Assembly (NCBI GenBank): GCA_964019425.1
Contig: OZ025799.1
Span: 1,116,001 to 1,180,000 of the forward strand
DNA: 64,000 bases
Reading direction: 5' to 3'
Origin: Flectonema sp. DT1601
Lineage: Eukaryota
The position numbers were made by a program, and so were the translations under genes. Positions 1 to 51,439 of this stretch are shown in pieces; positions within the stretch are counted from its first letter, which is position 1; each line of letters opens with the position of its first letter. A model generated the notes under the pieces. It worked only from the letters and a program-made list of their open reading frames with translations. It was not told where the DNA came from and did no database searches.

Positions 1-675
1 AACTTTTTTTTTTTTTTTTTTTTTAAATGCCTAGTTAAATATTTGTGTCACAGTTCGCATTCGAAGATTCATCAGATTCCCCCTTGTCCAGAAATATTGT
101 TAGAGGGAGGCAGGGAAAAAAGTTAAACAAGGACACCTCAACACACAAATATATAAAAAAAAGAGAGTAATACCGCCTCCTTAACTGGGTGCACAGAAAT
201 GGGAGAAGAAAAACTCTGTTTTTTCCCCCCACTTTTTTTTTTCGTAGGGGAGGGGACGAAAAAATAATGTCCTGAGCCCCTCTATCGTTACTTGTTTGTT
301 TGGATTTTTTATTTTATTTTTTTCTCTTTTATGGTAGTTGCGTAGTCTGTTGTTGGTGAAGCTACAGCTCCCTATTAGAAGTTTCCACCCCGGCATCCCC
401 TCTCCGCAAGTATATCTCTGTGTGAGCTGGGGCATTTAAAAAAAAAAAAAAAAAAAAAGTAAAAAGGAAAGACCGAGGGCATTTTCCTCCCCTCTTGTTT
501 GTTTTTTTTGTGTCCTAATCCCTATATAGTATGTAACCCTGCTTTTTTTTTTATTTTTATTTTTATTTTGTTTGTCTGAATTTTTATGGAAAAAAAAAAA
601 AAGGAGAGATTTAGTTTTGTGTAAACAAATAGAGTATTTTATTAAACAGGTGAGGTTGTGTCAACAACAGACGAA

Positions 676-3600
676 ATGAATACATACACTCAGTTAGTAG
701 CTGTTTTGGTATTTATGCTACAGAGTACCGTTGCAGAAGACAACAGAATGGTCGCCTACGTCGGAAACTGGCAAGCATGTCCGACAACAACACAAACTAA
801 TCAATACACTGAGCTCTTAATTGGTTTCGCTGTCACCTACACCTGGGCCGCTGCGAAGAACAATTGCAACGTCAACTGCGACATCATAACTCCAGTTCCG
901 ATTTGTAATAATGCGGCTAACCCTGGACTTGTATCTCAATGGCAGGCAGCTGGTAAGAAAGTGATTCTCTCATTCGGAGGTGGAGGTATGGGAGGATCGT
1001 GGGATGGTAAGAACGACTGCTGGGAACACTGCTTCGGGAAGGAAGATCACGTCGTCAGTCAACTAAAACAGATTGTCAGAGATCAGAATTTCGATGGAGT
1101 GGATCTCGACTACGAGTATTACTATGAAAATGGTCAAAGAGGGTCTTCCTTCGCAAGAGGTACGGAAGCTCAAAAGTTCATCCGTGACGTGACTACAAAA
1201 CTGAAACAAGAACTTCCAGCAGGTAAACTTGTGACTCACGCACCTATGGATATTGATTTAGTATCTGGGACTGCATACTTTAATATTGTGAAGTCTATCT
1301 CTTCATCAATTGATTTCATAATGCCACAATATTACAATGGTGTTGTTGACTCTGCTGCTAATGGTTTCACTGGTGGAACTACATCAGGGATAGCACACTA
1401 CACAGCTCTTGTGAATGATGCATTCGGAGGAGATGCTACTAAAGTAGTTTATGGATTTTGTATCTCTCAATGTACTCCTGGAACTATTACTGGAGCTGCT
1501 GCTGCTGCTGTAGTTAAGGAAGTGAATACAAACTTTCCTTGTAACGGTGGGGCCTTCTTTTGGGTTGTTAATATGGACACTGGAGCTACTTGGTCAAGTG
1601 CTGTGAATGCTGAGGTTGCAGTCAACAGAGGATGCTCAACAGGAGGCACACAGGCTCCAGCCATTCCAACAACAGCGTCGCCACCAACACCTGTTCCTGT
1701 TCCAAAACCAACAACTACGGAAGATGGCAGAATGGTCGCCTACGTTGGAAACTGGCAGGCATGTCCGACAACAACACAAACTAATCAATACACTGAGCTC
1801 TTAATTGGTTTCGCTGTCACCTACACCTGGGCCGCTGCGAAGAACAATTGCAACGTCAACTGCGACATCATAACTCCAGTTCCGATTTGTAATAATGCGG
1901 CTAACCCTGGACTTGTATCTCAATGGCAGGCAGCTGGTAAGAAAGTGATTCTCTCATTCGGAGGTGGAGGTATGGGAGGATCATGGGATGGTAAGAACGA
2001 CTGCTGGGAACACTGCTTCGGGAAGGAAGATCACGTCGTCAGTCAACTGAAACAGATTGTCAGAGATCAGAATTTCGATGGAGTGGATCTCGACTACGAA
2101 TATTACTACGAAAACGGTCAAAGAGGGTCTTCCTTCGCAAGAGGTACGGAAGCTCAAAAGTTCATCCGTGACGTGACTACAAAACTGAAACAAGAACTTC
2201 CAGCAGGTAAACTTGTGACTCACGCACCTATGGATATTGATTTAGTATCTGGGACTGCATACTTTAATATTGTGAAGTCTATCTCTTCATCAATTGATTT
2301 CATAATGCCACAATATTACAATGGTGTTGTTGACTCTGCTGCTAATGGTTTCACTGGTGGAACTACATCAGGGATAGCACACTACACAGCTCTTGTGAAT
2401 GATGCATTCGGAGGAGATGCTACTAAAGTAGTTTATGGATTTTGTATCTCTCAATGTACTCCTGGAACTATTACTGGAGCTGCTGCTGCTGCTGTAGTTA
2501 AGGAAGTGAATACAAACTTTCCTTGTAACGGTGGAGCCTTCTTTTGGGTTGTTAATATGGACACTGGAGGTACCTGGTCAAGTGCTGTGAATGCTGAGGT
2601 TGAGAAGATTAGAGGATGCTCAACGGGTAGCACGCAGGCTCCAGCCATTCCAACAACAGCGTCGCCACCAACACCTGTTCCTGTTCCAAAACCAACAACT
2701 AAAGAAGATGGCAGAATGGTCGCCTACGTCGGAAACTGGCAGGCATGTCCGACAACAACACAAACTAATCAATACACTGAGCTCTTAATTGGTTTCGCTG
2801 TCACCTACACCTGGGCCGCTGCGAAGAACAATTGCAACGTCAACTGCGACATCATAACTCCAGTCCCGATTTGTAATAATGCGGCTAACCCTGGACTTGT
2901 ATCTCAATGGCAGGCAGCTGGTAAGAAAGTGATTCTCTCATTCGGAGGTGGAGGTATGGGAGGATCATGGGATGGTAAGAACGACTGCTGGGAACACTGC
3001 TTCGGGAAGGAAGATCACGTCGTCAGTCAACTAAAACAGATTGTCAGAGATCAGAATTTCGACGGAGTGGATCTCGACTACGAGTATTACTACGAAAACG
3101 GTCAAAGAGGGTCTTCCTTCGCAAGAGGTACGGAAGCTCAAAAATTCATCCGTGACGTGACTACAAAACTGAAACAAGAACTTCCAGCAGGTAAACTTGT
3201 GACTCACGCACCTATGGATATTGATTTAGTATCTGGGACTGCATACTTTAATATTGTGAAGTCTATCTCTTCATCAATTGATTTCATAATGCCACAATAT
3301 TACAATGGTGTTGTTGACTCTGCTGCTAATGGTTTCACTGGTGGAACTACATCAGGGATAGCACACTACACAGCTCTTGTGAATGATGCATTCGGAGGAG
3401 ATGCTACTAAAGTAGTTTATGGGTTTTGTATCTCTCAATGTACTCCTGGAACTATTACTGGAGCTGCTGCTGCTGCTGTAGTTAAGGAAGTGAATACAAA
3501 CTTTCCTTGTAACGGTGGAGCCTTCTTTTGGGTTGTTAATATGGACACTGGAGGTACCTGGTCAAGTGCTGTGAATGCTGAGGTTGAGAAGATTAGAGGA

Positions 3601-5349
3601 TGTTCTGCATCGACAACAACCGCGCCAACTCCGATCCCAACGCTTGTGCCGACACTCGTACCGACATCAATGCCAACCAGCGTTCCTACTGCTGTGCCAA
3701 CTAACGCACCAACGGCTGTACCTACTGCTGTTCCTACAGCCGTTCCGACTGCAGTTCCGACAATGACACCCACCATGGTGCCAACAGCAGTACCAACGGC
3801 AGTCCCAACCAATGCACCAGGTGCGCCTCCAACAGCTGTTCCAACAGCAATGCCCACGGCAGTTCCAACAGCAATGCCCACAGCAGTTCCGACTGTAGTA
3901 CCAACTGCTGTCCCGACCGCCACTCCGACGGCTGTTCCGACCGCGGTTCCGACTATGGTACCAACGGCAATCCCAACCAATACGCCAGGTGCGCCACCAA
4001 CAGCTGTTCCGACTACGGTACCAACCGCAGTCCCGACCTTAATTCCAACAATGATACCCACCATGATGCCAACAGCAGTACCAACGGCAGTTCCCACGGC
4101 AGTCCCAACAAATACACCAGGTGCGCCTCCAACAGCTGTTCCAACAGCTATGCCTACAACAGTTCCGACTATGGTACCAACGTCTATCCCGACAGCAATC
4201 CCAACAAATACACCGGGTGCGCCTCCAACAGCAGTCCCGACAGCCACTCCGACAGAAGTCCCTACAGCGATGCCGACTGCAGTTCCAACAGCGATCCCAA
4301 CAAATACACCGGGTGCGCCACCAACAGCAGTTCCGACTACGGTACCAACCGCCGTCCCGACCTTAATTCCAACAATGATACCCACCATGATGCCAACAGC
4401 AGTACCAACGGCAGTTCCCACGGCAGTCCCAACTAATACACCAGGTGCGCCTCCAACAGCTGTTCCAACAGCTATGCCTACAGCAGTTCCGACTATGGTA
4501 CCAACGGCTATCCCGACAGCAATCCCAACAAATACACCAGGTGCGCCTCCAACAGCTGTTCCGACGGCAATGCCTACGGCAGTTCCGACTATGATACCAA
4601 CGGCTATCCCGACAGCGATCCCAACAAATACACCTGGTGTACCCCCAACAGCTGTTCCAACAGCTATGCCTACAACAGTTCCGACTATGGTACCAACAGC
4701 TATCCCAACAGCGATCCCAACAAATACGCCTGGTGTACCCCCAACAGCTGTTCCGACTATGATTCCAACGGCTATCCCGACAGCTGTACCGACCAATACG
4801 CCTGGTGTACCCCCAACAGCTGTTCCGACTATGATTCCAACGGCTATCCCGACAGCTGTACCGACCAATACACCTGGTGTACCCCCAACAGCAGTCCCCA
4901 CAGCGATGCCGACCGCAGTAATCCCAACAAATAAACCGGGTGTACCTCCAACAGCAGTTCCTACAGCAATGCCTACAACAGTTCCGACTATGGTACCACC
5001 GACAGCGATCCCAACAAATACACCTGGTGTACCCCCAACAGCTGTTCCGACGACAATGCCTACAGCAAACCCAACAATGGCACCTGGCGTTCCTCCAACA
5101 GAAAACCCAACAGTGGCACCCGACGTTAACGCCAACGGTGCAGGAGGTGCTGATTCGGAAGACGACTCGTCTTTCAACTGGCTTTGGGTAATTATTCCTC
5201 TTCTCATTGTGTTCAGTGCCTGCGGTGCTATCGCCTTCTTCCTGATTCGGAAGAAACAAGATGACCTTTCTCTTACCGACTTCCACGAGCTTATGACAGC
5301 AGAGCCTGACACTGACACTGTGCAGCCTGCGCAGCAGGGAAGGGTTTGA
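676..5349 (+). CDS. Membrane-anchored chitinase-like protein: signal peptide, three near-identical GH18 domains, long Pro/Thr (PTAVP) stalk, C-terminal TM helix
   Basis: GH18 catalytic motif FDGVDLDYE (DxxDxDxE) and KVILSFGG occur three times with a 984-nt period; hydrophobic N-terminus from ATG 676; TM segment [23 protein letters not shown] followed by RKK. Confidence 0.9.
745..3600 (+). repeat. Three tandem ~984-bp intragenic repeats (GH18 domains)
   Basis: AGAATGGTCGCCTAC recurs at ~745, ~1729 and ~2713; units are nearly identical at DNA level. Confidence 0.95.
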
Positions 5350-11733: not shown

Positions 11734-11805
11734 CGCTCCCACTCGGGTTTGAACCGAGGCTGCTGGATTCAAAGTCCAGAGTGCTATCCACTACACCATA
11801 GGAGC
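11734..11805 (-). tRNA. tRNA-Gln (anticodon TTG)
   Basis: Reverse complement GCTCCTATGGTGTAGTGGATAGCACTCTGGACTTTGAATCCAGCAGCCTCGGTTCAAACCCGAGTGGGAGCG folds as a cloverleaf; A/B boxes present; T11 run follows immediately. Confidence 0.95.
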
Positions 11806-12293
11806 CCCCGACCAAATTTCCTTTTTTCTTTTTTTTGGTTACACTCGTCTGTGCTTCCAGACTCTTTGTTTTTGTTCTTTTCACTTCTTTGTTTTGTCTT
11901 TCTTTTATACTTTCTTTTGGTTTAAGTCTGACAAATTGGAAAACACGGGAAACATAGGTAGGCTCCGCCTGAGGACGTAAGAAGAGCGGCAACGGAAAAA
12001 TAAATGGTCACGCGTCCTTGAAATTGGACACACGAAGCTAATTCGGTTACCATTCCTACCATCGATAAGGAAAACAAAGAGTCGAGCATATAACTAGAGC
12101 GGTGGTCAAAGACCACTTGAACAGCCCGAAGGCCTGCCCTCAAGAGAAATTTATAAGGAGAATAGGAGAAGAAGGAGACAGGAGTGTTGGAAGAGACACT
12201 GAGACAACACCGAAGGTGATGTGCAGTTACCCAACCAGGAGATGATTGATAATGATGAAAATACTAAATATTGATAAAACACTTAAATGGCGA

Positions 12294-15200
12294 CTACGTG
12301 TCACCTACACAATTCCAAAGTCTCAGGTTGGATGCTTGTTCCATCCACCTGATCAACATCGCTACCGAAGGAAGCCAGCTGGTGGCAAAGATTGAGCCAA
12401 GACTGGCAGGAATGCCGTTGATGAGGATTAGATCACTTGATCGGTCCCATTTGCCTGTCAATGTAGAAAAGCCAAGGATTTCATATCTGGCTGCATCGAG
12501 TTTCTGTGATGGACAGCCTACGAGTAGGTGGAGTTGGTTGGATGGAGCGCTATGGCAGAATGGACATATGATGGCTTTCCGCCAGTTTTGCATCAGTGGA
12601 TGACACCCCGTTCTAAAATTCGCAATTCTGATTTCATCGCTCCTTTTCATGTCGGGAGGATATTTTATCGCGGCACCTTTGACGGTGTTTTTATAGCAAG
12701 TGTAACCAATTCTGTTCCAAATGTCCTTCGTGATCCCCCTCCTCACTCGGGATTTGTGATAGAAGAAGGATCCTCGGATTGGGATTTGAGGGAGGTATCT
12801 GTTGTGAGCCGATTTCTTAGCAAGCTCATCAACTTCGTCGTGTGCTTCTATCCCCATGTGAGAAGGGATGAATTGAAGATGTACTTTCATACCGCAGTTC
12901 CGTAGGTTCTCGAGGATGCCGAGGGATCTGGTGTTTCTCTGTTTACACCTGCCACCCTTCAACTCGTCCAACAATGATTTTGAGTCGGTATAGATTCTGA
13001 CTGACTTAGTTAGCCCGTCTTTCTGTACCTTCCAGTTTAAGTAGTTTGCCGCATTTTTCAAGGCATGTTGCTCAGTTCTGTAGCTGCAATCCGCACGCAC
13101 TAATCTGGTCGCATGAGCACGTTTCTTTCCGTCTCGTGACCTAGCAATGAGAGCCGCGCCTGACGCATTCAAAGAGTATGAACCGTCACAGTTGATCACC
13201 ATGTCCACCGGAGGAAGTGTCGCGTTGTAGGTAAGGAATTTCTCCCTGTCCACTGCGGGATCAGGGGATTTTGTAAAACCGCAGCTGTTGCTGATTTGAA
13301 CATTGTCCGAAGCAATCCAAGGTTTGATAGAGTCAGGTTGAACGATCCCCACACTTTCTAGTTGACCTTCAGAACGGGGAATGAGGCCACCCCAGAAGCT
13401 TCGAGGCGATGCGAGTGAGTTGGTGTCCGGCACCCAGGTCATGGCTTTGTACCTGAAATAGGCAATTTTAGTCTGCTTTTCGATTTGTCTTTTAAACGGT
13501 AAGATGTCGGCTTCCCAAAGGAGCAACTCCCTCGGAGTACATCTGCTGCATCCTGTTACGAGTCTCGCTATTTTTCTCATCTCGAAGTCGATAGCATCCG
13601 TTTTATGCTGGTTGAGCAACCAACCAAAGCTGTCCAGTGCATAGGAAATCCTCGCTGTCACGTACAAGTTTTTAACCATCTTTAGGGTCTTGTAGTCCAA
13701 TTCATATGGCTGGAGGCACTGCAGAAGGGAGATCCCTTTCTTCAGTTCGTCGTGTATTTTCTCTAACTGTTTATCAAACCTGAGCCTGTTATCAATGTAA
13801 ACACCCAGATATTTCACTGAGTCCGTGATCGGCAGTAGGAAGGCAATTTTAATTTTCGCTTTGACATTCATCTCGTCGTGGATGTTCAACATCAGTAAAT
13901 CTTCTAATTCTTGTTGAGTCCTGATGGGTTTCCCCTCTACTTCGAGGATCGTTTCACCACTCAGTAAAGTGGGCCTTGTCGTCGTCGTGATGATCACGCT
14001 GTCTAGATCAAAATAGTCAATATCTAACGAACGTACTTCCAGTGATTTTGAGAATAAGAGTTCGCGGTCGCTAGTATCAGTCAGGGTTACTTCTTTCGAT
14101 TGAATATCCATTTTCAGAGCGCAAGTCTTGGAGACTGAAAGTGCCATGTCATTATCACGGCACCACTTGTCAACGATGTCAAGTATTCGTTGAGCGTTTG
14201 AGATTGCTTCGTCCATGGTCGAGCCAAATACTGCACAAGCGGTGTCGTCTGCATACAGTGCGGTCAAAGTCGTTTCCTTCTCTTGTGAGAGAATCTTACA
14301 CAGATCGTCAACATATATTAAATAGAGTAGTGGGCCTAAGATTGATCCTTGAGGCACTCCTTTTGACAGCGTACGAAACTTACTGAAATGTCCATTTGCA
14401 TCAACTCTGACCTTCCTATTGGTTAGAAAGTCCGTTATCCATCGAACGATGAAGGTTGGGATGCCCATTCTTTGTAGTTTTGAAAGTAAAATTCGATGGT
14501 TAATCCTATCGAAGGCAGCTGTGAAATCGAATGACAAGAAGACTGACCTCCTCCCCTTCGTGTGGTTGTTTACCATGGCGTCCACCAGAATTGTGATTTG
14601 TTCGCAGGTATTTCTGCCCCGTCTGAAGCCAGCTTGAATCGGACTGAGTGCTGAGTTTTCGGTAAGCCAATGCATGAGCCTGTCGTACACCAACCTCTCA
14701 GCCAGTTTGCCAACAACCGAAGTGAGTGTGATTGGTCTGTAGCTTTTAATATCGTTCCGCGGTTTGCCCGACTTGAACATCGGTTTGATTAACCCCTGTT
14801 TCCAAAGATATGGAACATTGGAGGATCTCCACGAAGAATTGATCACCTTTAATAAACAGTCAACTGCCTTCTGAGATAAGTTCTTAAGCATTTCGTTGTG
14901 AATACCGTCAGGGCCTGCTGCTTTGCGAGGCTTCAGGTTTTTAATTGCTGCTGATATCTCGGTATCTGTGAAGTCACAACAGATGTCCAATTCCAAGTCT
15001 TCTTTCTCCAATGAAGGGGCTTCGAGTTTAGCAGCATCCCCATCGGCCACAAAGAGGTCCAGAAATGCTGCAGGTAAATCGTTCTCAGATATATTTGATA
15101 CGCTGATGTCCTTACCAGCGTCCTGTTGGAGTTCTTTAATCTTCTTGAAGGCGAAGTTAAAGTTGTTCCCCTTCTTCAGTTGGTCTTTCAGGTGACTGCC

Positions 15201-16274
15201 TTTTGATTTTAGAGATTCCGGTGAAGAGATCTTCCACTTACGTCGGCGCTTGCCCTTAAATAAGATTCTCCTCCGCACGTTCCTCGCAGCTACTTCATGT
15301 ATTATGTTATTTAATAATCCAACATTACCAGTGGCATCATCCGAGAACTTAGCCCTATCAATTCTTCTATCAAGTTGCTGTCTGAAAGCACTCCAGTTTG
15401 TAGATTTGAAATCCCAGACAGTTCGTTTCCTTGCTCCAACTGTTGCTTGAGAGAGGTGAGCCATTGTGTCGAAGATAGCGAGTAGAGGTCGATGATCCGA
15501 GTTATGTTTACTGTCTTCATTTATGATTGAAAATTCTTCTAATACAATTGATCCTTTGAAGAATATAACGTCAGGTGAGGTACCACCACCAGGAATGTCG
15601 TGTTTGGGCCGAGTTATTTGACCAGGTCTGTTTGCTACGAGAACGTCATTGCGATCCGCCCAATTAAATAATTCTTTACCAGATTTGGTTGTCCTGGTAG
15701 ACCAGACGAGGTTGTGTGCGTTGAAGTCGCCCGCAATAATAGACTTCGTTGTGATCGGAAGATCATCTTCTCTAATGATACACCCAGGGGGAGCGTAAAC
15801 GTTAATAACATTGACACCACCAACATTCAACATCATAGCTTCGATACCGCTTGTTCTCGAAAACAATTCTTCATCACTGATTCCTTGTGAGAAGCATCTC
15901 TTTGCCATTATTATAATGCCACCACCTTTTGTATTTCTGTCCTTCCTATATGTATAATAGCCAGGGTGCGAAATGTGTTCCTTCGACCAGGTTTCCTGTA
16001 AGCACAGTACATCCGGCGAGTAGTGAGAAAGGAGTCTTTGAATATAAGACCCCTTCTGACTTATCGATCTACAGTTCCAGCTCAACACTGAGAGTAACGA
16101 ATTTTCAGGTCCAGGGTTGCGTTCAACGTCGCCTGCCAGCAGTAATAAACTTCGGGTCAGTTCTTTTTCAGTTTGAGAGATAGTCGGTGCTGTTACAGTA
16201 GTCGGCTTCACCAGAACTTTACTATGATGTGCGTCATTTTTAGAATTTGAAGTTGACGGTGTTCGTTTGTCAAG
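12294..16274 (-). CDS. Copy A ORF2: 2A peptide, apurinic endonuclease, reverse transcriptase, RNase H, CCHC; no initiator AUG, in frame with ORF1
   Basis: LLLAGDVERNPGP; SWNCRS, LCLQETW, GDFNAH, SDHRPL (APE); KAAGPDG, YRPITLTS, QAGFR, GVPQGSILGP, YADD, KYLGV (RT); INCDGS, YTDSKS, FIPSH (RNase H); CPFC...HLLVGC. Confidence 0.93.
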   Translation of the reverse strand, partial: LDKRTPSTSNSKNDAHHSKVLVKPTTVTAPTISQTEKELTRSLLLLAGDVERNPGPENSLLSVLSWNCRSISQKGSYIQRLLSHYSPDVLCLQETWSKEHISHPGYYTYRKDRNTKGGGIIIMAKRCFSQGISDEELFSRTSGIEAMMLNVGGVNVINVYAPPGCIIREDDLPITTKSIIAGDFNAHNLVWSTRTTKSGKELFNWADRNDVLVANRPGQITRPKHDIPGGGTSPDVIFFKGSIVLEEFSIINEDSKHNSDHRPLLAIFDTMAHLSQATVGARKRTVWDFKSTNWSAFRQQLDRRIDRAKFSDDATGNVGLLNNIIHEVAARNVRRRILFKGKRRRKWKISSPESLKSKGSHLKDQLKKGNNFNFAFKKIKELQQDAGKDISVSNISENDLPAAFLDLFVADGDAAKLEAPSLEKEDLELDICCDFTDTEISAAIKNLKPRKAAGPDGIHNEMLKNLSQKAVDCLLKVINSSWRSSNVPYLWKQGLIKPMFKSGKPRNDIKSYRPITLTSVVGKLAERLVYDRLMHWLTENSALSPIQAGFRRGRNTCEQITILVDAMVNNHTKGRRSVFLSFDFTAAFDRINHRILLSKLQRMGIPTFIVRWITDFLTNRKVRVDANGHFSKFRTLSKGVPQGSILGPLLYLIYVDDLCKILSQEKETTLTALYADDTACAVFGSTMDEAISNAQRILDIVDKWCRDNDMALSVSKTCALKMDIQSKEVTLTDTSDRELLFSKSLEVRSLDIDYFDLDSVIITTTTRPTLLSGETILEVEGKPIRTQQELEDLLMLNIHDEMNVKAKIKIAFLLPITDSVKYLGVYIDNRLRFDKQLEKIHDELKKGISLLQCLQPYELDYKTLKMVKNLYVTARISYALDSFGWLLNQHKTDAIDFEMRKIARLVTGCSRCTPRELLLWEADILPFKRQIEKQTKIAYFRYKAMTWVPDTNSLASPRSFWGGLIPRSEGQLESVGIVQPDSIKPWIASDNVQISNSCGFTKSPDPAVDREKFLTYNATLPPVDMVINCDGSYSLNASGAALIARSRDGKKRAHATRLVRADCSYRTEQHALKNAANYLNWKVQKDGLTKSVRIYTDSKSLLDELKGGRCKQRNTRSLGILENLRNCGMKVHLQFIPSHMGIEAHDEVDELAKKSAHNRYLPQIPIRGSFFYHKSRVRRGITKDIWNRIGYTCYKNTVKGAAIKYPPDMKRSDEIRIANFRTGCHPLMQNWRKAIICPFCHSAPSNQLHLLVGCPSQKLDAARYEILGFSTLTGKWDRSSDLILINGIPASLGSIFATSWLPSVAMLIRWMEQASNLRLWNCVGDT

Positions 16275-17699
16275 TCAGTTTGAATTATCCATTTCCACAT
16301 CAGTCGTTTCAGTAGTATCGGTTGGTTCTTCAGCACAGTGTCGCTTCAGATCACCAGATATAACTGGACCCTTGCCCGGGTTGAAGGTCGGCCCCAATTT
16401 GACCGGCTTTTCTCTTTTAGTTTCCATGTTGATTACAAGGTACGCATCTTTACCCATGTCGACGAAGCTTGGTGATGGAACCGATTCAGAGATTGCAATT
16501 AACGTTTTGTTGCCTCCCTTATGAAAACTAGCCACAATTGTGTGACTCCACTTGTATGCGTGCAACAGGTGATCGCTGATCTGTTGCGTCGTGAACTTCT
16601 TAATAGCCAGTGATTTAATTATAAAACGCTGACCAGTCGGCAGTGCGGGTTTCAGAGAATCCCCGAGTGATTCTCTCACTTTTTGAGTAAACCCGGGTTG
16701 AACTTTCAGCCCAAAGCACTCTCGGAACTTCGTGATGTAGAAGCTACCTTTGATTGCTGAAAGAACTGAAAGTTTGCCCAGCACCGCTTTGAAGCCCAAG
16801 TCCTTAACGAACTGAACTGTGTTCCAAGAGTCTTGGCCATTAGACCAAGATGGGTTTCTGATGAATAGATCTCTCTTCTCACTGGAGGTGTCGCTGTTGT
16901 TGTATTCCAGAATTTCAGAAATTCTGAAGTTTGGCACACGGATCGCCATAGATGTGTGCATATCGCATTTTTTAAATCCGAAGGGCGATGTCTTCAGCTC
17001 CCACTTTTTAATTAATTCTTTCACCTTAGTGGTGAGAGTGCTCTCTGCTGATTTACTCCAGTCTTGTACGAATAGAACTGGGTCTGGCTGTGGTGGCTCG
17101 ATGGCGTCTTCTCTTGCGGCAGTGAAATCTTTGCCACAAATCGGGGTGACAAATACCCTACGAATGACGCAGGTTCCGCACTTCTTTACGACTGGAAGTG
17201 CGACTGGGACTGTTGTTTTAAACAGTTTAGACTTTGAGATGGCAGTCCAGTCGCCCTTCGTTCGTGTTTGCTTCAGTGCTTCATAATCAGCCTTTGAGCT
17301 GATGAGCACGAGTCCGTCCGCGTTGTTTTTGGAGGCATCGATTGCTTCTGAGAATTTAAGCGTAGGTGTTGCTTTAGCCCACGCTGCGTGAATGTACCAC
17401 TCTGGCAGAGTGGGTTTCTTGTTGTTGGTAGTTGGTGTCGGGCCTCCATCATTTCCATCCCTCACCGTGCTCGCCGCTTCCTGTCGTTGTCCCCCGGACT
17501 CCTTCCCCTTCCTCTCTTGCTCTGTCGTCTTTCTCTTTGACGACTCTCCTTGTTTCTCTCCGGAGTCCTCCGTCAGCTGCTCCAGCACTCTCATCGTGAG
17601 AGTCAAAACCCTCCTTCTCTTTTCTTCTCCTGCTAGTCCTTTCTCCACTTCTTGTACTAGCCGCATCACATCCAAAAGCAGCTCCTTACAACTGCTCAT
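16275..17699 (-). CDS. Copy A ORF1 protein (no recognised domain)
   Basis: Long open frame from ATG 17699; clearly homologous to copy B ORF1 (PEWxIHxAWA, TVPVALPVxKK, VLFxQDW, RNPSWSNG, VASFHKGG, LGPTxNPG). Confidence 0.85.
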   Translation of the reverse strand: MSSCKELLLDVMRLVQEVEKGLAGEEKRRRVLTLTMRVLEQLTEDSGEKQGESSKRKTTEQERKGKESGGQRQEAASTVRDGNDGGPTPTTNNKKPTLPEWYIHAAWAKATPTLKFSEAIDASKNNADGLVLISSKADYEALKQTRTKGDWTAISKSKLFKTTVPVALPVVKKCGTCVIRRVFVTPICGKDFTAAREDAIEPPQPDPVLFVQDWSKSAESTLTTKVKELIKKWELKTSPFGFKKCDMHTSMAIRVPNFRISEILEYNNSDTSSEKRDLFIRNPSWSNGQDSWNTVQFVKDLGFKAVLGKLSVLSAIKGSFYITKFRECFGLKVQPGFTQKVRESLGDSLKPALPTGQRFIIKSLAIKKFTTQQISDHLLHAYKWSHTIVASFHKGGNKTLIAISESVPSPSFVDMGKDAYLVINMETKREKPVKLGPTFNPGKGPVISGDLKRHCAEEPTDTTETTDVEMDNSN

Positions 17700-17763
17700 T
17701 ATAGTTTTATGTCTGTCAGAAAACCCGCACAAAATCGACTCTCACCAGGTAATGGTAGGAAAT

Positions 17764-17779
17764 CAATAAAGTACAGAAA
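17764..17779 (-). other. Spliced-leader 3'-end remnant at the 5' end of copy A
   Basis: Minus strand TTTCTGTACTTTATTG matches the diplonemid SL exon 3' end as I recall it (kinetoplastids: TTTCTGTACTATATTG); preceded by five extra TCTGTACT units. Confidence 0.8.
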
Positions 17780-18682
17780 GTACAGAAGTACAGAAGTACA
17801 GAAGTACAGAAGTACAGATTTCCTTTTTTCTTTCTGTCGTTCGAACGTAGATTTTCTTTCTTCTTCTCCTTCATTTTCCCACGGTACCCCAATCTTCCTG
17901 TCGCTTCATGGTTCCACGTGATCCTTTCTCCAGCTCCTTGGCTCCGATGATTTTGGTTCCTTTTTTCTATCCGATTCGCCAGCCACTATGTGCGCTTTAC
18001 TTCAAGGGTAGCATCATCATGTTGCTTATTGCCCCGAACCGCTACCACCCGCGTAGGTTTGCATTTCCAGGGGTCCCTCCGATAGGTCTCCCCCGTGATC
18101 CATTCTAGTGCCAGTTCTAATGCACGTAGTACGGGATCCTTTTCCTCTCGTGTGGCCTCATGCCACTTTTTTCCACTGCGCCTCCTACTCTCGCGCTCTC
18201 TCGTCCGTGCACAGCTTCTTCACCTTCCCAGCGTAGCACCTGCAGTGAGGTTTCACTCCATGTGCTGTACGTTCCACATGGGACCGCGTACCGCCGATCC
18301 CTGCGTGCCCTTTAACGTCTTGTCCGCTGGCTTGTACTCCGGGTCAGTGCCTGAGGAAAGCCTCCGCCCCCGCCTCCTCTCCATTATTGAAATCCTGGTA
18401 TACATCGCACGAGAGTCCCCTTTTTTCGGGGTGGCATAGAGCTTGAACTTGCTCTTCACTCGCGTCGCCAGTTTACTCCTTGTTGTGTCCGCCCGTATTG
18501 TGCTACGAGCTGCGTTCTTCTTCTCACACCGACCAAGCGACCTCCATGTTGCCTGTGGAACTTCACTCTGTACCGGTGACTTAACGATACCGTCGTAGAG
18601 TTTTTTACTACGTTTATACCGTTTAAAGGATAAATTCCTATGTTTGTGACCCTTTCCTATTTTAGTTTCACAGAGTAATATA

Positions 18683-37684: not shown

Positions 37685-38864
37685 GGAGGTTATAGAAAGT
37701 CTTAAGCTACTCTAACGCCTTCAGTTTGGTCGATCCATTCTTATCACACAAACAGTTAACAATCTAAAGGAGTCATGAGGGATCACTACTACCGTAGTGA
37801 ACTGTTCCTATGTTGGAATTGATTAGCAGTTCTGACAGAAGTCTTTACTTAAGGTCTGCCACCTCATGCTCTGCAATTGCTCCACCTTCTGGAGATCAAG
37901 AACCCTTTAAAGAGCAGGATCTTTTCCTCTGTCGAAAGACTTTGGGGGATTCGCTGTTTGTCTTCGATTGCTTTGATTCTGTTCCTCTTCGTCGGGATTT
38001 TTTCATGCAAACGAACGTAGTTTCAAAAGAGAGATGTTCTGATTCGTCTGAACTGACGAGTTTTTCTTTTTTTCACTTCTTTTTTCCTCTCTTCCTTGCC
38101 CTCCTTTTGTCATCAAAATCTTTACGTGAAATCATTTTTAGAGGTTGAAATTTTTTTTATCCCACTTGAACCTTTTTCTTTCGTTCTTTCAGATTACAAA
38201 AATGAAAATACTCTGATTACAAGTGCAGTTGGAGAAAACATTACTTTGTGGATTTGTTCAGTAGCGTGAACAGAGGTAGAGAAGGTTTCCGTGTAGCAGT
38301 TGGACATAGGGCAAGTGTAATTTTCACCTCAAATAGACATCATGTACTCTTAACTTTTAATTTACTTTTCAGGATGTAATGTAGGCCTTTGAAACAACAT
38401 CAGCAACAGCATGCAAGCAATTCTGATGCACTGACCCAAGTGATAAAGATTTCCTAAAAAATCGTGCCTGCAAGAGTCCATTTCTTAAAAGGTCTTGTAG
38501 ATCCTTCTCCGCATATTCTTTGCAAAGAAAAAACAGCTGCCACTTTTTTTCTGTGGCGTTCCTGGCGAAACCTACACTCTGCCGTATTACATTATACCCC
38601 TGGTTTTGGTTTCCCAGGGCTCACGATTAATTCGTAATTGAATAACTCGATTTCGTACTGCACTGAATGACTATAACACGGAAAAAGAGACATGTATGCA
38701 GATAAGTTAGAAACATTGATTATAATGTAGAGCAAGTACGGAGTGTTATTTTAGTCACTGTGTCATGAGTTTTTAATATTATTATTGAGTTCTGAGAGAT
38801 TTATATTTGTATGAACCTAATCAAACAAAAAGCCAATTGACATAGCTGTTGAAAAGAAAAAAAG

Positions 38865-38936
38865 CAACCGTGGCAGGACTCGAACCTGCAACCGCCTGAT
38901 CCGTAGTCAGGCGCTCTTCCATTGAGCCACACGGTC
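38865..38936 (-). tRNA. tRNA-Arg (anticodon ACG)
   Basis: Reverse complement GACCGTGTGGCTCAATGGAAGAGCGCCTGACTACGGATCAGGCGGTTGCAGGTTCGAGTCCTGCCACGGTTG folds as a cloverleaf; T7 run downstream. Confidence 0.95.
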
Positions 38937-39451
38937 AATAAATGGAAAAAAGCTTTTCTTTTTTTTTTTTTTTTTTGGTTACACTCGTCTGTGCTACCAA
39001 ACTCTTTGTTTTTGTTCTTTTCACTTCTATGTTTTGTCTTTCTTTTATACTTTCTTTTTGACTTAAGTCTGACAAATTGGAAAACACGGGAAACATAGGT
39101 AGGCTCCGCCTGAGGACGTAAGAAGAGCGGCAACGGAAAAAATAAATGGTCACGCGTCCTTGAAATTGGACACACGAAGCTAATTCGGTTACCATTCCTA
39201 CCATCGATAAGGAAAACAAAGAGTCGAGCATATAACTAGAGCGGTGGTCAAAGACCACTTGAACAGCCCGAAGGCCTGCCCTCAAGAGAAATTTATAAGG
39301 AGAATAGGAGAAGAAGGAGACAGGAGTGTTGGATGAGACACTGCGACAACACCGAAGGTGATGTGCAGTTACCCAACCAGGAGATGATTGATAATGATGA
39401 AAATACTAAAAATAATAACAAATTGATATTGGCGACTACATGTCACCTACT

Positions 39452-42400
39452 TTATTTCCAAAGTCTAAGGTTAGATGTCTGTTCCATCCACCTTATGATC
39501 AACGCGAGTGATGGAAGCCACGCCAAAGTGAAGAGAGCTTCAAGGTTAGGAATTTCGTTGGCAATAATAAGTTCCCGGTCGCGATCCCACTTGCCGGTCA
39601 GTGTTGAGAAGCCCAGGATTTTGAACCTGGCCGAATCGAGTTTGGGAGATTGACATCCCTGCAGCAGGTGAACCTGTGAGGACGGTTCGCCACAAAATGG
39701 GCAGTCGATCGTCTTGCGCCAGTTCTGAATTAGCGGGTGACATCCTGTCCGGAAGTTCGCTATCCGTATCTCGTCGGCTCTTTCCATCCCAGGAGGGTAT
39801 TTAACGGAACGGCCTCCGATGAGGTGCTTGTAGCAAGTGTAACCACTCACGTTAAGAAGATCTTTTTTGATGCAGCGCTTAACATGAGATGATCGCGAGA
39901 AGTACGTGCCTTTGACTAGCACAGGACGGATGTTCTTGTTGTGTGCTGCTTCCTTTGCAAGCGCATCAACTTCATCGTGAAATCCGATTCCAATGTGCGA
40001 GGGGATGAATTGCAGATGCACTTTCATTTCACACATGCGCAGGTATTCCAGTATCTTCAAGGACTCAGTGTTCTTCTGTCTGCACCTTCCACCCAGCAGT
40101 TCATCCAGAAGGGATTTTGAGTCCGTGAATATCCTCACAGATTTCATTGAAGTATCTTTGCTAAACACTGTTCTCAGATGTCTAGCCGCGTTCTTCAGAG
40201 CATGTTGTTCAGCCCTGTAGCTGCAGTCAGCTTGATAAAGCCTAGACGCGTAAGCAGATCGAAGGCCGCTACGTGACTTGGCAATATGAGCCGCACCGGC
40301 CGCGCCGGAAGCAGAGTAGGAGCCATCGCAGTTGATTACCATGTCGACAGGAGGTAACGTTCCAATGTACGACATGAATTTTTCTTTGTCCACCGCAGGG
40401 TTCGCGGACTTCGGAAATCCGCAGCCGTTGCTAATCCTAAGGTTTGTCGGAGATACCCAGGGTTCCATCGAGTCAGGCTGCACAAGGCACTGGCTTTCTC
40501 GCTGACTATCAGTGCCAGGGATTAGGCCAGCCCAGTAGCTTTGTGTTGAGGCGAGTCTGTTTGTATTAGGTATCCAAGTCATGGCTTTATACCTGTAGTA
40601 CGCAATTTTTGTCTGCTTTTCAATCTGACGTTTAAAAGGATACATGTCAGACTCCCACAACAGTAACTCTCTTGGCGTACACTTGCTGCATCCAGTAACC
40701 AGTCTGGCGACCTTCCTCAGTTCGAAGTCGATGCTGTCAACGCTGCTGCTTATCAGCCAACCAAAACTGTCAAGCGCATATGAGATTCTTGCGGTTACAT
40801 AAAGGTTCTTAACCATGTTAAGAGTCTTGTAGTCCAGTTCGTACGGCTGGAGGCACTGCAGAAGTGATATCCCCCTCTTTAATTCTTCGTGAATCTTGCC
40901 TACTTGTTTGTGGAAGGTGAGCCTGTCGTCGATGTGAACTCCGAGGTATTTTACTGAGTCGACTATCGGTAACAGAAAGGCAGTTTTGAATATTGCTCTC
41001 ACAACCATAATGCTGTCCTCACGAACGACGTATTGCAGCATCAAGTTGTCGAGTTCTTCTTGTGTCTTGATTGGGATTCCTCCAATTTCAAGAATCGTTT
41101 CGCCACTTTGAAGCATGGGTCTGGGTGATTTGAGATTGATATGATTCTCGATGTCACCATAGTCAAGTTTAAGCATGCGTTCCTCAACAGATCTAGAGAA
41201 AAGCAGTTCGCGATTACACGTATCGTTTAGTACTATGCCCTTCGAGCGAACATTCATCTTAAGCGCACAGGTTTTGGAGACCGATAAGGCCATGTCGTTT
41301 TCAAAACACCATTGATCCACTTTGTCGAGTACTAACTGAGCATTCGAAAGAGCTTCTTCCATGTTTGATCCTGACACCACACATGCTGTGTCATCCGCAT
41401 ACAGAGCAGACGTCGTTGTTTCCTTCTCCAGTTCCAAAATCTTGCAGAGGTCATCAACGTAGATAAGATAAAGAAGAGGACCCAGGATCGATCCCTGGGG
41501 AACCCCCTTAGCCAGAGTACGGAATTCGCTAAAATACCCATTCGCTTCAACTCTAACCTTCCTGTTTGTAAGAAAGTCTGTGATCCATCTGATAATAACA
41601 TTCGGAACACCCATCTTTACTAATTTTAATAAAAGTATCTTATGGTTGATCCTGTCAAACGCAGCAGTAAAGTCGAATGACAAGAACACTGATCTCTTTT
41701 CTTCCATGTGGCTCCTTACGATAGCATCTACTAGAACGGTGATCTGCTCGCAGGTATTTCTCCCCTTTCTGAATCCAGCCTGTAGTGGACTGAGCGACGA
41801 ATGTTTTGTGAGCCAGTGCATGAGTCGGTCATACACGAGCCTCTCCGCAAGTTTCCCAACAACCGAGGTGAGCGTTATTGGTCTGAAACTCTTTAGTTCA
41901 TTACGAGGTTTCCCTGCCTTGAACATGGGCTTGATTAGTCCCTGTTTCCATTGGTACGGTACTTTTGAAGTCTTCCAAGAAGTGTTAATAATTCTCAAGA
42001 GGTATTCCACTGTTGCCGGAGTGAAGTTTTTGATCATCTCATTGTGAACTCCATCAGGTCCTGCAGCCTTGCGGGTCTTCAGGTTCTTAATCGCAGCTTT
42101 AATTTCAGCCATTGTGAAATCACAGCAAATATCTATTTCATTATCACCTTCTGAGAGTGCGGGGGCCTCTAGCGATAATATTTCCGATTTCGAGACAAAC
42201 ATGTCCAAGAATGCTGATGGGAGATCGCAGTCAGAGATGTTGTTGACACTGATATCTTTACCAGCATCTTGCTGCAGTTCTTTGATCTTCTTAAACGCAA
42301 AGGCAAAGTTGTTACCCTTGTCAAGTTGATCACGTAGGTGGACACCCTTCGATTTGGTAGAATCAGGGGTTGACGTCTTCCACTTTCGTCTCCGTTTCCC

Positions 42401-43363
42401 TTTGAAAAGGAGACGTCGACGAATGAATTTAGCCGCCACTTCATGCAGTATGTTGTTAAAGAGCTTGGCATTCGCAGTTGCATCATCGGAGAGTCTTGAT
42501 TTTCTAATTCTCTTTTCGAGCATGGTCCCAAAGCAGTTCCAGTCCGTAGACTTGAAGTCCCATACAACGCGTTTCTTCGAACCTATCGTGGCCCGTGCAA
42601 GTTGGCACATGGGATCCAGTACGGTGTAGAGAGGTCGATGATCTGACCCATGTTTATTATCTTCTTCAATTGCACTAAATTCTTCAAGAACCATCGAGTT
42701 TGAAAAGAATACTACATCTGGCGAGGTACCACCCCCCGGGACGTCAGGAAAAGGCCTTGTGATTGACCCCATCTTGTTAGCAACCAGTAGATCATTTTGG
42801 GCTGCCCATGCATGTAGAGTTGAACCTGCTCTCGTCGATTTAAGTGACCACACCGGATGATGGGCATTAAAGTCACCCGCGACGATTGCTTTCGTTGAGA
42901 CTGGAAGATCTGACTCTCTGATCATGCATCCCGGGGGAGCATAAACATTGATGATGTCAATCTTTCCACCTATGTTGACCTTCACGACCTCGACATCATT
43001 TAAGTGTGGCGGAAGCTCCATGTTCAAACGCTGCTGAGTGTGGCATTTTTTCACCATAGAAATAACCCCTCCACCTCGTGTTGCCCTATCATTCCGATAG
43101 GTGAAATAGTCCGTGTGCGAAATTACATCATTCGTCCAAGTCTCCTGTAGGCACAGTACGTCAGGCGCATAGGCATTTAGCAGCTTGTGAATATAAGCGC
43201 CTTTGTTCCCCATCGATCGACAGTTCCAGCTCAGTAGAGATATGAGAGAGTTGTCAGGGCCAGGGTTGCGTTCGACGTCGCCTGCCTTTAGCAGCAGTTC
43301 ACGAGCCGTATCCTTTTCCACAAGTGAGTTGGTCGGACTGAGTTCATCCTCATCGTCATCTAG
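39452..43363 (-). CDS. Copy B ORF2: 2A peptide, APE, RT, RNase H, CCHC; no initiator AUG, in frame with ORF1
   Basis: LLLKAGDVERNPGP; SWNCRS, GDFNAH, SDHRPL; GVPQGSILGP, YADD, KYLGV; INCDGS, FTDSKS; CPFC...HLLQGC. Confidence 0.93.
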   Translation of the reverse strand, partial: LDDDEDELSPTNSLVEKDTARELLLKAGDVERNPGPDNSLISLLSWNCRSMGNKGAYIHKLLNAYAPDVLCLQETWTNDVISHTDYFTYRNDRATRGGGVISMVKKCHTQQRLNMELPPHLNDVEVVKVNIGGKIDIINVYAPPGCMIRESDLPVSTKAIVAGDFNAHHPVWSLKSTRAGSTLHAWAAQNDLLVANKMGSITRPFPDVPGGGTSPDVVFFSNSMVLEEFSAIEEDNKHGSDHRPLYTVLDPMCQLARATIGSKKRVVWDFKSTDWNCFGTMLEKRIRKSRLSDDATANAKLFNNILHEVAAKFIRRRLLFKGKRRRKWKTSTPDSTKSKGVHLRDQLDKGNNFAFAFKKIKELQQDAGKDISVNNISDCDLPSAFLDMFVSKSEILSLEAPALSEGDNEIDICCDFTMAEIKAAIKNLKTRKAAGPDGVHNEMIKNFTPATVEYLLRIINTSWKTSKVPYQWKQGLIKPMFKAGKPRNELKSFRPITLTSVVGKLAERLVYDRLMHWLTKHSSLSPLQAGFRKGRNTCEQITVLVDAIVRSHMEEKRSVFLSFDFTAAFDRINHKILLLKLVKMGVPNVIIRWITDFLTNRKVRVEANGYFSEFRTLAKGVPQGSILGPLLYLIYVDDLCKILELEKETTTSALYADDTACVVSGSNMEEALSNAQLVLDKVDQWCFENDMALSVSKTCALKMNVRSKGIVLNDTCNRELLFSRSVEERMLKLDYGDIENHINLKSPRPMLQSGETILEIGGIPIKTQEELDNLMLQYVVREDSIMVVRAIFKTAFLLPIVDSVKYLGVHIDDRLTFHKQVGKIHEELKRGISLLQCLQPYELDYKTLNMVKNLYVTARISYALDSFGWLISSSVDSIDFELRKVARLVTGCSKCTPRELLLWESDMYPFKRQIEKQTKIAYYRYKAMTWIPNTNRLASTQSYWAGLIPGTDSQRESQCLVQPDSMEPWVSPTNLRISNGCGFPKSANPAVDKEKFMSYIGTLPPVDMVINCDGSYSASGAAGAAHIAKSRSGLRSAYASRLYQADCSYRAEQHALKNAARHLRTVFSKDTSMKSVRIFTDSKSLLDELLGGRCRQKNTESLKILEYLRMCEMKVHLQFIPSHIGIGFHDEVDALAKEAAHNKNIRPVLVKGTYFSRSSHVKRCIKKDLLNVSGYTCYKHLIGGRSVKYPPGMERADEIRIANFRTGCHPLIQNWRKTIDCPFCGEPSSQVHLLQGCQSPKLDSARFKILGFSTLTGKWDRDRELIIANEIPNLEALFTLAWLPSLALIIRWMEQTSNLRLWK

Positions 43364-45022
43364 TCAGTTGAGATCAAAGTCCGAATCGTTACTTTCCATT
43401 TCTACGTCACGGTTTTTATCACTATCCTGCTTAGCAGCAGATTCGGTGGGCGGTGTTGTTGTTTGTGCTGTTGCTGGTGCTGGCGTTGGTGTTGGTGCTG
43501 ATGGTGCTGGCGCTGGTGTTGGTGCTGATGTCGGCTGCTGAGTTGGCTGTTGTGGTTGAGGAGTTGTTTTTTGTCTCTTCAGGGTTCCCGTTAGTTTTTG
43601 AGCCGCGTCGCCTGGGTTGTAGGTTGGGCCTAGCGGTTTTCTGTCAGTTCGTTTAACTTCTTTGTTTATTACAAGGTATTCATTAGTACCTATGCTTACG
43701 AAGTTGGGCGGTTGAGATTTCGCAATTGCAACAATTGTAGTACTCCCTCCTTTATGGAAAGAAGCAACAACTGTGTGTTCCCAGTTGTGTGAGGACTTCA
43801 AGAAGTCGCTGATCTGCGCTGTCGAGTACTTACGAATCGCCATCGAATTTATAACAAACCTGTCGCCCGAGGGCAGTGCAGGCTTGATTGCCGCGTTGAG
43901 CTTAATGCTGACCCTGATATTACAGTCAGGGTGGACTCGGAGTCCAAAACAGCTTTTAAACCTGCACATGTAGAATTTTCCTTTGAATTCATCAAGTGCA
44001 GAAGTCTTGGACTTCGCTGCCAGGAAGCCAAGGTCGTTTTTGAATTGCAACGTTGGCCAAACGTCACTTCCGTTCGACCAACTCGGGTTTCTGAAAAAGA
44101 CATTCTTGGGTTTGTCAGTTTCGGGTTCGCTGTTGTTGTATTCCAGAACCTCGTGTACTTGGTTTCTGGGGACTCTGAAAGCCATCGAGGTGTGGGACTC
44201 GTTCTTTCTGTAGCTAAAGGGGTCCGCCTTTATCTTCAATTTCTTTAGAATATCGGTCGTTTTGACGGTCAATTCTTTCTCAGCTGATTTTCCCCAGTCT
44301 TGGATGAATAGAACTGGGTTGGGAGTTGGAATCTGGTGGCTAGTTGCTGCTTTAGAAAAGTCGTCACCAAATACGTGCGTGTAAAATACGCGCCTGATCT
44401 CGCAGACGCCACCCTTTTTTATCACCGGTAATGCTACTGGAACGGTGCTCTTTGTGAGCGGGATTTTGCTGATAGCAGCCCAACGGCCGCTCTTCTTTGT
44501 TTGGCGGAGTGCTTCTAAGTCTAGCTTCGAACGAACTAAAACAAGACCAGAGGTAAGGTTGTTTGTAGCATTAGCTGCTACGTCGTAACTGATGGTGGCC
44601 ACAGTGCCTGCCCACGCACCGTGAATGTGCCACTCCGGGTAGCTTGCTTTTGCTTTTCCCTTCGTGGTTTGATTGTCCTTCATTGCTGTCGGTATCGGCA
44701 ATGAGAACGGCTTCGTACTCGTCTGTTGATTAGAAGCTGTAGATGCTCCTGTAGTTGGTTGGTTGACACCTGTGGTTGAGGGTGTCGTCGCTTCTGCTGC
44801 CGTCGTCGCGGTCGCTTCCGTCCCACCACTCCCATCGAGTGTGTCCGGTGTCCTCCTCTTCATCTCCGGGTTCCCACCTTCTGACCCAGCTACGAATTGA
44901 ACGATCTCCAGTAGGAGATTTGCCACCCTTCTTTCCTTCTCTTGCTCCGGGATCCCGTCTTCTCCCACTATCTTCAGGAGGTTTATTGCCTCCGATACCA
45001 ACCTCCTCAGGTTGTCTCTCAT
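43364..45022 (-). CDS. Copy B ORF1 protein
   Basis: Open frame from ATG 45022; homologous to copy A ORF1, with longer Thr/Pro-rich linkers. Confidence 0.85.
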   Translation of the reverse strand: MRDNLRRLVSEAINLLKIVGEDGIPEQEKERRVANLLLEIVQFVAGSEGGNPEMKRRTPDTLDGSGGTEATATTAAEATTPSTTGVNQPTTGASTASNQQTSTKPFSLPIPTAMKDNQTTKGKAKASYPEWHIHGAWAGTVATISYDVAANATNNLTSGLVLVRSKLDLEALRQTKKSGRWAAISKIPLTKSTVPVALPVIKKGGVCEIRRVFYTHVFGDDFSKAATSHQIPTPNPVLFIQDWGKSAEKELTVKTTDILKKLKIKADPFSYRKNESHTSMAFRVPRNQVHEVLEYNNSEPETDKPKNVFFRNPSWSNGSDVWPTLQFKNDLGFLAAKSKTSALDEFKGKFYMCRFKSCFGLRVHPDCNIRVSIKLNAAIKPALPSGDRFVINSMAIRKYSTAQISDFLKSSHNWEHTVVASFHKGGSTTIVAIAKSQPPNFVSIGTNEYLVINKEVKRTDRKPLGPTYNPGDAAQKLTGTLKRQKTTPQPQQPTQQPTSAPTPAPAPSAPTPTPAPATAQTTTPPTESAAKQDSDKNRDVEMESNDSDFDLN

Positions 45023-45080
45023 AATTGCTTTTTCCTGTGAAACGTACCCACTGATTCTTACCAATATTAGGTTGCGAAAT

Positions 45081-45096
45081 CAATAAAGTACAGAAA
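45081..45096 (-). other. Spliced-leader 3'-end remnant at the 5' end of copy B
   Basis: Minus strand TTTCTGTACTTTATTG, followed by ATTTC as in copy A. Confidence 0.8.
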
Positions 45097-45181
45097 GCAA
45101 GATGGATGCGACAAAAAGCTTTTCATTTTGTCGCATCCATCTTGTATATCTCTCATTTAGCTTTTTTTAAAAAAAAATAAA

Positions 45182-50928: not shown

Positions 50929-51439
50929 TCTTATAATCGACAAATGTCAAGATCAAGACCGCAGCCTACAAGACTAGGAAGTACTGATGGCAATTTAGCA
51001 ACACATCCGAAGACGTCCAAGTGGACAATTTACTCTGTAGTATTAGTTTTAAGTTATCAAAACAAAGAAAGGAGATACGAAGCCTACGGGATCCCCACCC
51101 CCAACCCCCAAAACAAAGAAAGTAAGAAAGAAAGAAAGAAAAAGAACAACCGCGCCTAACAGCGCAATCAGCATCACAGACTCACGGGTCGTGGTGCACA
51201 CAAAAAAAAAAAATTTTTTATTTTCTGAGCATGCTCTCAGTTTACTCTCAGTTTACAGTATTGACTTGTTTAACTTCAGCTGAGTGCTTTTGTCAAAGAA
51301 CGACGTCATCCGATACCGGAATGCATTGATGCAGCGCTGATGTACATTCGAAAGGGAACTATTGGTGAAATTATTGAGAAAGCAAGAATCTCTAAGACTG
51401 CACGTACTTACGGCAGTCCAATGTGATTGCGATTTACTT

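Follow-up and report, generated by a model that had tools for sequence, protein, structure and literature searches.

An in-frame UGA codon and a 2A sequence between the two reading frames of diplonemid LINEs: a candidate readthrough and StopGo cassette

We describe the junction between the two open reading frames (ORFs) of two long interspersed nuclear elements (LINEs), called A and B, in Flectonema sp. DT1601. Both lie on the minus strand of a 64,000-nt stretch of contig OZ025799.1 (positions 1,116,001 to 1,180,000), referred to below as the window and used for all coordinates; they are the only elements whose stop-codon DNA was read. In each, ORF1 and ORF2 form one frame interrupted by a single TGA, which is followed by an open spacer and a 2A sequence. 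This layout is confirmed as a real feature kept in both elements, and the case for it is stronger than first stated. It suggests that the ORF2 protein (ORF2p) would be made, at a low level, by minority readthrough of the ORF1 UGA and would then be freed by 2A skipping, a reading which we consider reasonably probable from the sequence comparisons. What is seen directly is the layout, the fact that diverged families conserve it, and the use of TGA as an ordinary stop in host ORFs.

The junction and the elements that carry it

In A, the ORF1 frame (16275-17741) abuts the ORF2 frame (12294-16274), and in B the corresponding frames are 43364-45079 and 39452-43363. The A junction reads AAC-TGA-CTT-GAC (16269-16280, with AAC at 16278-16280 and TGA at 16275-16277), a candidate readthrough site, and is followed by a spacer of 55 in-frame codons (16110-16274) with the 2A RSLLLLAGDVERNPG at its end. 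The B junction reads AAC-TGA-CTA-GAT (43358-43369, TGA at 43364-43366) and includes the readthrough motif UGA-CUAG; its spacer has 35 in-frame codons (43259-43363) and ends with the 2A RELLLKAGDVERNPG. Neither spacer includes an in-frame AUG. Both lead to GDVERNPG/P directly ahead of the endonuclease (Gly 16110-16112 and Pro 16107-16109 in A; Gly 43259-43261 and Pro 43256-43258 in B), and the GDVERNPGP core is preceded by the leucine-rich RSLLLLA or RELLLKA, which matches the StopGo motif D(V/I)ExNPG/P with its leucine-rich tract. No Met occurs in frame before codon 122 of A and codon 50 of B; these two codons, the earliest Met in each element, fall within the endonuclease, past its SWN motif. 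NPGP occurs only twice in all six frames of the window, once in each element. A preliminary description of this DNA had reported the common frame with its single TGA, the two junction sequences, the lack of an AUG ahead of the endonuclease, and spacers that diverge while frame, stop context and 2A stay. These observations all stand: the spacers differ in length by 20 codons and follow the same AAC-TGA-CTN-GAY.

The same description treated A and B as two copies of one element, which has to be revised. They are two intact families of the apurinic endonuclease (APE) type and not near-identical copies: their proteins share 43% identity for ORF1 and 67% for ORF2, and silent sites are near saturation (conserved fourfold-type codons agree at the third position in a fraction of only 0.34-0.39). 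ORF1 encodes 474 amino acids in A (16275-17699) and 552 in B (43364-45022), each ending in Asn before the TGA. For the A protein, N-terminal helices and three RRM-like domains are predicted from weak matches. An ORF1 model with a pLDDT of 68 has three RRM/ACT-like domains, again with weak matches only (best Foldseek E 1.1e-3, to Prp24; best Z 7.4), and a Pfam scan of ORF1 gave no match. Counted from the 2A Pro, ORF2p has 1271 residues in A (12294-16109) and 1268 in B (39452-43258) and comprises APE followed by reverse transcriptase (RT), with Pfam Exo_endo_phos and RVT_1 passing cut-offs in both. The RNase H motifs DGS, EQHA and TDSK and a C-terminal CCHC motif come after the RT. All catalytic motifs are present in both proteins. 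Pfam gave no RNase H match in A or B at E 0.01; a precomputed match exists for relatives from Flectonema neradi.

The closest named relatives of the A and B proteins are from the diplonemids F. neradi and Diplonema papillatum, which points to a diplonemid host. In an RT tree of 17 rows built without named reference elements, A, B and the protein P0033 form a group with support 98/97, which F. neradi proteins join at 93/96. Protein clusters, fragments counted, have 18 (A) and 20 (B) members for ORF1 and 37 (A) and 101 (B) for ORF2. Alignment searches found no ORF1 relatives among 116 candidates from metagenome contigs, no ORF2 relatives in viral contigs and one distant RT (L120) in prokaryote genomes. 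In the part of one sequencing run that was examined, four short unrelated matches were present and the junction was not covered. ORF1 fusions of 967-2760 residues were sought among 7798 candidates and none was found, which is weak evidence.

Several observations bear on whether the junction is kept beyond chance. Around the stop 10 of 12 bases are identical between A and B, and the flanks are unalignable. Among the 2697 TGA trinucleotides of the window, CT comes next in 6.0% and AAC just before in 3.3%. TGA ends 5 of 13 long host ORFs and TGA-CT none of them (some of these ends may be exon ends). The pattern AACTGACTNGAY occurs twice in the window against 0.15 expected and 0 of 100 shuffles reach two, a significance that is overstated because the pattern was taken from those same two sites. 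The last ORF1 residue is Asn in A, B, P0003 (F. neradi), P0083 and P0086, though their ORF1 tails, in which Asn makes up 4.4% of residues, are unalignable. Eleven matches were returned by an ORF1 profile search. P0001, P0003, P0083 and P0086 end in Asn, as does the B family, recovered by a separate search; the others include three N-terminal fragments, a repeat-rich probable false match and P0091, which continues into the 2A. Among the cluster members listed (15 of 18 for A and 15 of 20 for B), 28 of 30 stop at the same Asn, the stop codons themselves not being visible in these proteins, and the two exceptions are short forms that stop early in ORF1. A chance nonsense mutation as the source of the TGA was rejected in view of this common end and of the presence of the codon in two diverged families.

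As a control, metagenome sequences were scanned for a 2A followed by Trp, which gave at least 119 loci. Among the matches listed, 130 motif matches included 61 with an endonuclease-like W/F-N motif, 47 of them unique and 42 of these with a stop in view. An in-frame Met is present in 35 of the 42, which makes a Met-started leader the usual arrangement in 2A-LINEs and the layout of A and B a departure from it. TGA-CT was found in two loci, both with a Met and without an upstream ORF, and an in-frame upstream ORF of at least 100 codons in one (L078), so that a long in-frame upstream ORF together with TGA-CT was found in 0 of the 42 listed loci, which are 2A-LINE-like and unrelated to A and B.

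The locus L078 (reverse complement, 3239-4483) is an unrelated LINE in which a 239-codon ORF ends in TGA-ACG and is followed by 22 Met-free in-frame codons, the 2A and the endonuclease, an order which hints that the design may have arisen more than once. In L103, which is paired with it, a homologous ORF ends in TGA-CAA and the 2A is in another frame; the two loci could represent an independent parallel, or decay. Other loci of the scan (L043, L021/L029, L023 and L065) have 2As in long frames that lack an endonuclease motif (two 2As in tandem in L043) and probably belong to RNA-virus-like polyproteins.

Possible routes to the ORF2 protein

In the proposed mechanism, most ribosomes would halt at the ORF1 UGA and yield ORF1p of 474 (A) or 552 (B) residues. 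A few percent would insert an amino acid at AAC-UGA-CUN-G and translate the spacer. An extended ORF1p of 530 (A) or 588 (B) residues would be released at NPG/P, and the same ribosomes would continue to produce free ORF2p starting at Pro, with 1271 (A) or 1268 (B) residues. Readthrough would thus set the ORF2p:ORF1p ratio and the 2A would separate the enzyme from its ORF1 portion. In retroviral Gag-Pol the freeing of the enzyme is the task of a protease. Readthrough is favoured because the kept frame, last codon and 3' bases are needed for it and not for reinitiation. The known readthrough motif is UGA-CU(A) with G at +4 (PMC4207609), human cells read through UGA-CUAG at 1.5-17%, and the codon in the P site has a major influence, AAC itself lying outside that test (PMC9841425). 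The preliminary description had named UGA-CUA(G) a classic readthrough context. For B, with CUA-G, the label is apt; A has CUU-G, which keeps the UGA-CU core and the G at +4 and lacks the A. Its reading of the cassette as readthrough followed by 2A skipping gains from the comparisons (frame, stop context, terminal Asn, missing AUG and complete 2A, in an arrangement absent from the controls), while the translation steps themselves are deduced and counter-results exist.

These counter-results are of several kinds. Besides the CUU-G of A, a similar in-frame UGA between gag and pol of Tca2 gave no readthrough in a yeast reporter (PMC2194720), several LINE 2As are inactive even though their motif is largely intact (PMC3708506), and our literature search found no case of UGA-CU readthrough in euglenozoans. 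Four foldings of the 3' sequence gave no stable stimulatory structure at either stop (z +0.42 to +0.99, pseudoknots lying outside the models); such structures occur in some viral readthrough cases and are not required in cellular ones. A scan for silent-site conservation had no peak at the junction, the best of 1031 windows being in ORF1 (p=0.001). Two distant ORF1s (22-32% identity) do not end in Asn (Gln in P0084, Ser in P0090). In the control, at least 300 nt upstream of the stop were available in only 21 of the 42 loci. Relatives with deviating junctions also weigh on this side. In the F. neradi proteins P0035, P0066 and P0067 a Met stands about 30 residues upstream of GNVEVNPGP, a 2A variant (D-to-N), so entry at an AUG is possible in this sister lineage; P0034, also from F. 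neradi, begins just before the endonuclease, its upstream part being out of view. Six A-family ORF2 calls extend over the 2A; among them P0050 begins with MPTT, whose Met could reflect a genuine AUG in the spacer. In the decayed copy P0091 the 2A is mutated, the endonuclease is broken, and ORF1 tail, 2A and endonuclease are read as a single frame. Back-translation of this copy allows a hidden M-E-Q-D-N-stop, then Leu, one base off the 2A frame, so that P0091 may represent either the same junction altered by two indels or a subfamily whose frame differs.

The main rival, which we regard as unlikely, is termination at the ORF1 UGA followed by AUG-independent reinitiation, at GUG or CUG or loosely within the spacer; the 2A would then trim the leader, and ORF2p would again start at Pro. 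In-frame GTG and CTG codons are present in both spacers, and gene callers place the ORF2 start at GTG or within the endonuclease, which hides the arrangement in protein databases. L1 tolerates a non-AUG start. Unconventional termination-reinitiation has been proposed for mammalian LINE-1 and demonstrated for SART1 (PMC5972666). The Met before the 2A in the F. neradi sister family and the possibly out-of-frame P0091 also fit such a route. Reinitiation, however, requires neither a common frame, nor a spacer open from the stop onward, nor AAC-TGA-CT-GA, and out-of-frame AUGs that would compete follow soon after the stop, one in A and three in B. Six of the nine B-family calls that reach the start of the endonuclease are without a start codon upstream of the 2A, a weak point on the same side.

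Far less probable is a separate ORF2 mRNA, trans-spliced or internally started, whose translation would begin at a non-AUG codon or rely on a short upstream frame. Diplonemid mRNAs receive a spliced leader (PMC10161547), the Tca2 junction contained a minor promoter (PMC2194720), and AG dinucleotides are plentiful in the spacers. Upstream of these AGs at most 14-15 of 20 positions are pyrimidines, against 14-20 of 20 at host genes; the values overlap the low end of host genes and a splice acceptor is therefore compatible with this tract test. In the ORF1 tail of each element a Met lies 5-12 codons ahead of the stop. Such an mRNA would still be without an in-frame AUG ahead of the endonuclease and leaves the conserved frame and stop context unexplained, and the leader relics of both elements are located upstream of ORF1.

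We give somewhat less credit still to a tight stop at a junction without any special role, the terminal Asn and open spacer being retained through descent or because of the protein itself. The junction DNAs are only two and common ancestry accounts for some of their likeness; the spacers are short, and when the part 5' of the 2A is shuffled the probability that it remains open is 0.13 in A and 0.44 in B. Against this, silent sites are near saturation, and ORF2s that are intact in all catalytic motifs in multi-member families mean that ORF2p must be made somehow. The least credible proposal, UGA as a sense codon (Trp genome-wide, or selenocysteine) in one ORF1-ORF2 frame split by the 2A only, can invoke stop reassignment in the euglenozoan Blastocrithidia (PMC12153298) and a strongly conserved 3' untranslated region (UTR), but Rfam found no selenocysteine insertion sequence (SECIS) in the window or the B 3' UTR (a divergent SECIS could escape), and genome-wide UGA=Trp was rejected because, besides the host ORFs that stop at TGA, the standard code leaves long ORFs with 20-24 Trp uninterrupted.

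Taken more broadly, readthrough followed by 2A skipping leads to a picture to which we would give even odds: a diplonemid LINE lineage whose RT would never be initiated, being made solely by UGA readthrough and StopGo in series from a bicistronic RNA headed by a spliced leader, and which would insert upstream of tRNA genes at a constant spacing.

Element ends, target sites and neighbouring features

Both elements are flanked by target-site duplications (TSDs). In A, the 16-bp copies lie at 17818-17833 (5') and 11816-11831 (3'). The 5' end (17764-17817) includes, at 17764-17779, the 16-nt 3' end of the euglenozoan spliced leader, with tandem 8-nt partial repeats of it upstream, and the 3' UTR with its A-tail occupies 11832-12293. 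In B, the 12-bp copies are at 45113-45124 and 38947-38958, the 5' end (45081-45096) has the same 16-mer followed by ATTTC as in A, and the 3' UTR with poly(A) extends over 38959-39451. The 16-mer equals the 3' end of euglenozoan spliced leaders (table of PMC3795323); no match to the 5'-end motif was found in viral contigs. As the TSD-flanked units span leader relic, ORF1, ORF2 and A-tail, the RNA that was copied must have been bicistronic. The relics of both elements are cut exactly after the leader's internal AG, and the joint between leader and element lacks an AG. The relic may be regenerated in each round by a captured terminus or a template switch. In B, 16 nt, mostly an inverted copy of the upstream flank, separate TSD and relic; the inverted repeat at this junction (45097-45145), in which about 15 nt are the reverse of the upstream flank, is probably due to a template jump at insertion.

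The 3' TSD copies of A and B stop 10 bp upstream of tRNA genes on the same strand, tRNA-Gln(TTG) at 11734-11805 beside A and tRNA-Arg(ACG) at 38864-38936 beside B (gaps 11806-11815 and 38937-38946). The window has two tRNA genes, each adjoining one of the two elements, and judging from these positions the lineage may well target tRNA genes. The 3' UTRs of A and B are 97% identical (455 of 470 aligned bases) despite near-saturated silent sites, which reflects either a recent swap of 3' ends or a strongly constrained recognition element; Rfam gave no match for them, and no ribozyme in the window at gathering score.

A third LINE, element C (45161-51210, plus strand), lies head to head with B. 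Its ORF1 and ORF2 overlap at an ATGA stop-start and it has no 2A. An in-frame TAG (49855-49857) ahead of its RNase H is probably a nonsense change. Before the insertion of B, the start of C's ORF1 would have been about 80 bp upstream of the tRNA-Arg gene, so C may target tRNA genes too. Just downstream, Rfam identified a large-subunit rRNA fragment (51265-51907, plus strand). Elsewhere on the plus strand, an ORF of 1567 codons (646-5349) encodes three domains that are nearly identical to one another and look chitinase-like by eye, together with a long stalk of PTA(V/M) repeats and, at the C terminus, a membrane-like segment. Two BspA-type leucine-rich-repeat genes lie in tandem at 53151-55493 and 56668-59061, the first with a Pfam LRR_5 match and both ending AAA-TGA-CCA.

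Comparison with known systems

How ORF2 is translated from bicistronic LINE RNA and what purpose LINE 2As serve are raised as open questions in the 2A-LINE papers (PMC3708506, PMC3894237), and stop-start coupling and reinitiation are the LINE ORF2 routes already known (PMC5972666). If readthrough followed by 2A skipping is correct, the layout of A and B would answer both questions for one lineage, add readthrough to the known routes as a natural readthrough-plus-2A ratio switch, and provide a case of UGA-CU readthrough in a euglenozoan. The junction cassette, at about 120-180 nt, is cheap to test. The preliminary description knew of no such tandem in a LINE, and we likewise found no LINE with readthrough followed by a 2A in the literature, Repbase, subscription journals and supplements (e.g. 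Odon 2013) lying outside the search; nor was the tandem found in the available text of two publications from 2026, a review of readthrough and a study of StopGo. LINE ORFs are listed, without analysis, in the accessible part of the article on the D. papillatum genome (PMC10161547).

The trypanosome elements Ingi and L1Tc share with A and B RNase H motifs and a C-terminal zinc finger, of the CCHC type in A and B, after the RT. They also have a 2A immediately upstream of APE in a euglenozoan APE-RT element, but the Ingi clade is described as lacking ORF1 (PMC3708506), whereas A and B have an ORF1 of 474 or 552 residues in frame behind a UGA, with no AUG. A and B further differ in having a spliced-leader relic as their 5' end and no Rfam ribozyme match, where the Ingi/L1Tc clade has the Pr77 hallmark with its HDV-like ribozyme, Pr77 itself not having been compared. 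Elsewhere, 2As ahead of APE are known from Ingi, L1Tc, CR1, L2, Crack and Rex1 elements, most of which have no ORF1. CR1-26_BF, CR1-53_BF and CR1-1_LG are three exceptions and resemble A and B in combining ORF1 with a 2A at the start of ORF2, but no in-frame leaky stop is described for them in the available text, where the authors weigh reinitiation or an internal ribosome entry site (PMC3708506, PMC3894237). Fusions from Cordylochernes scorpioides also have a 2A between ORF1p and ORF2p domains, but are annotated as single proteins, with no stop between and thus no ratio control by readthrough (preprint PMC13405545).

In gammaretroviruses, as in A and B, structural and enzyme genes share one frame with one stop. 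Gag-stop-pol elements release the enzyme by a protease and not by a 2A. The Candida element Tca2 has the same gene order (PMC2194720), but these are long terminal repeat elements in which a 3' pseudoknot has been proposed or takes part; no such structure is apparent in A and B. The cellular readthrough genes OPRL1, LDHB and MDH1 share the UGA-CUA(G) context (PMC9841425, PMC4207609) and gain a short C-terminal extension, whereas in A and B readthrough would be the only way in which an essential enzyme is made. In being placed directly upstream of tRNA genes, A and B recall the dictyostelid TRE5 and Dp_NLTR-A, the latter also with RNase H; this likeness is by description, in a different host group, and Dp_NLTR-A inserts at 2-6 bp, against 10 bp for A and B (PMC5006619). 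In summary, A and B resemble Ingi at the 2A and gag-stop-pol elements at the stop, and carry two ORFs where Ingi has a single one; the separate parts are already known and, as far as the literature was searched, it is their tandem in a LINE that is new.

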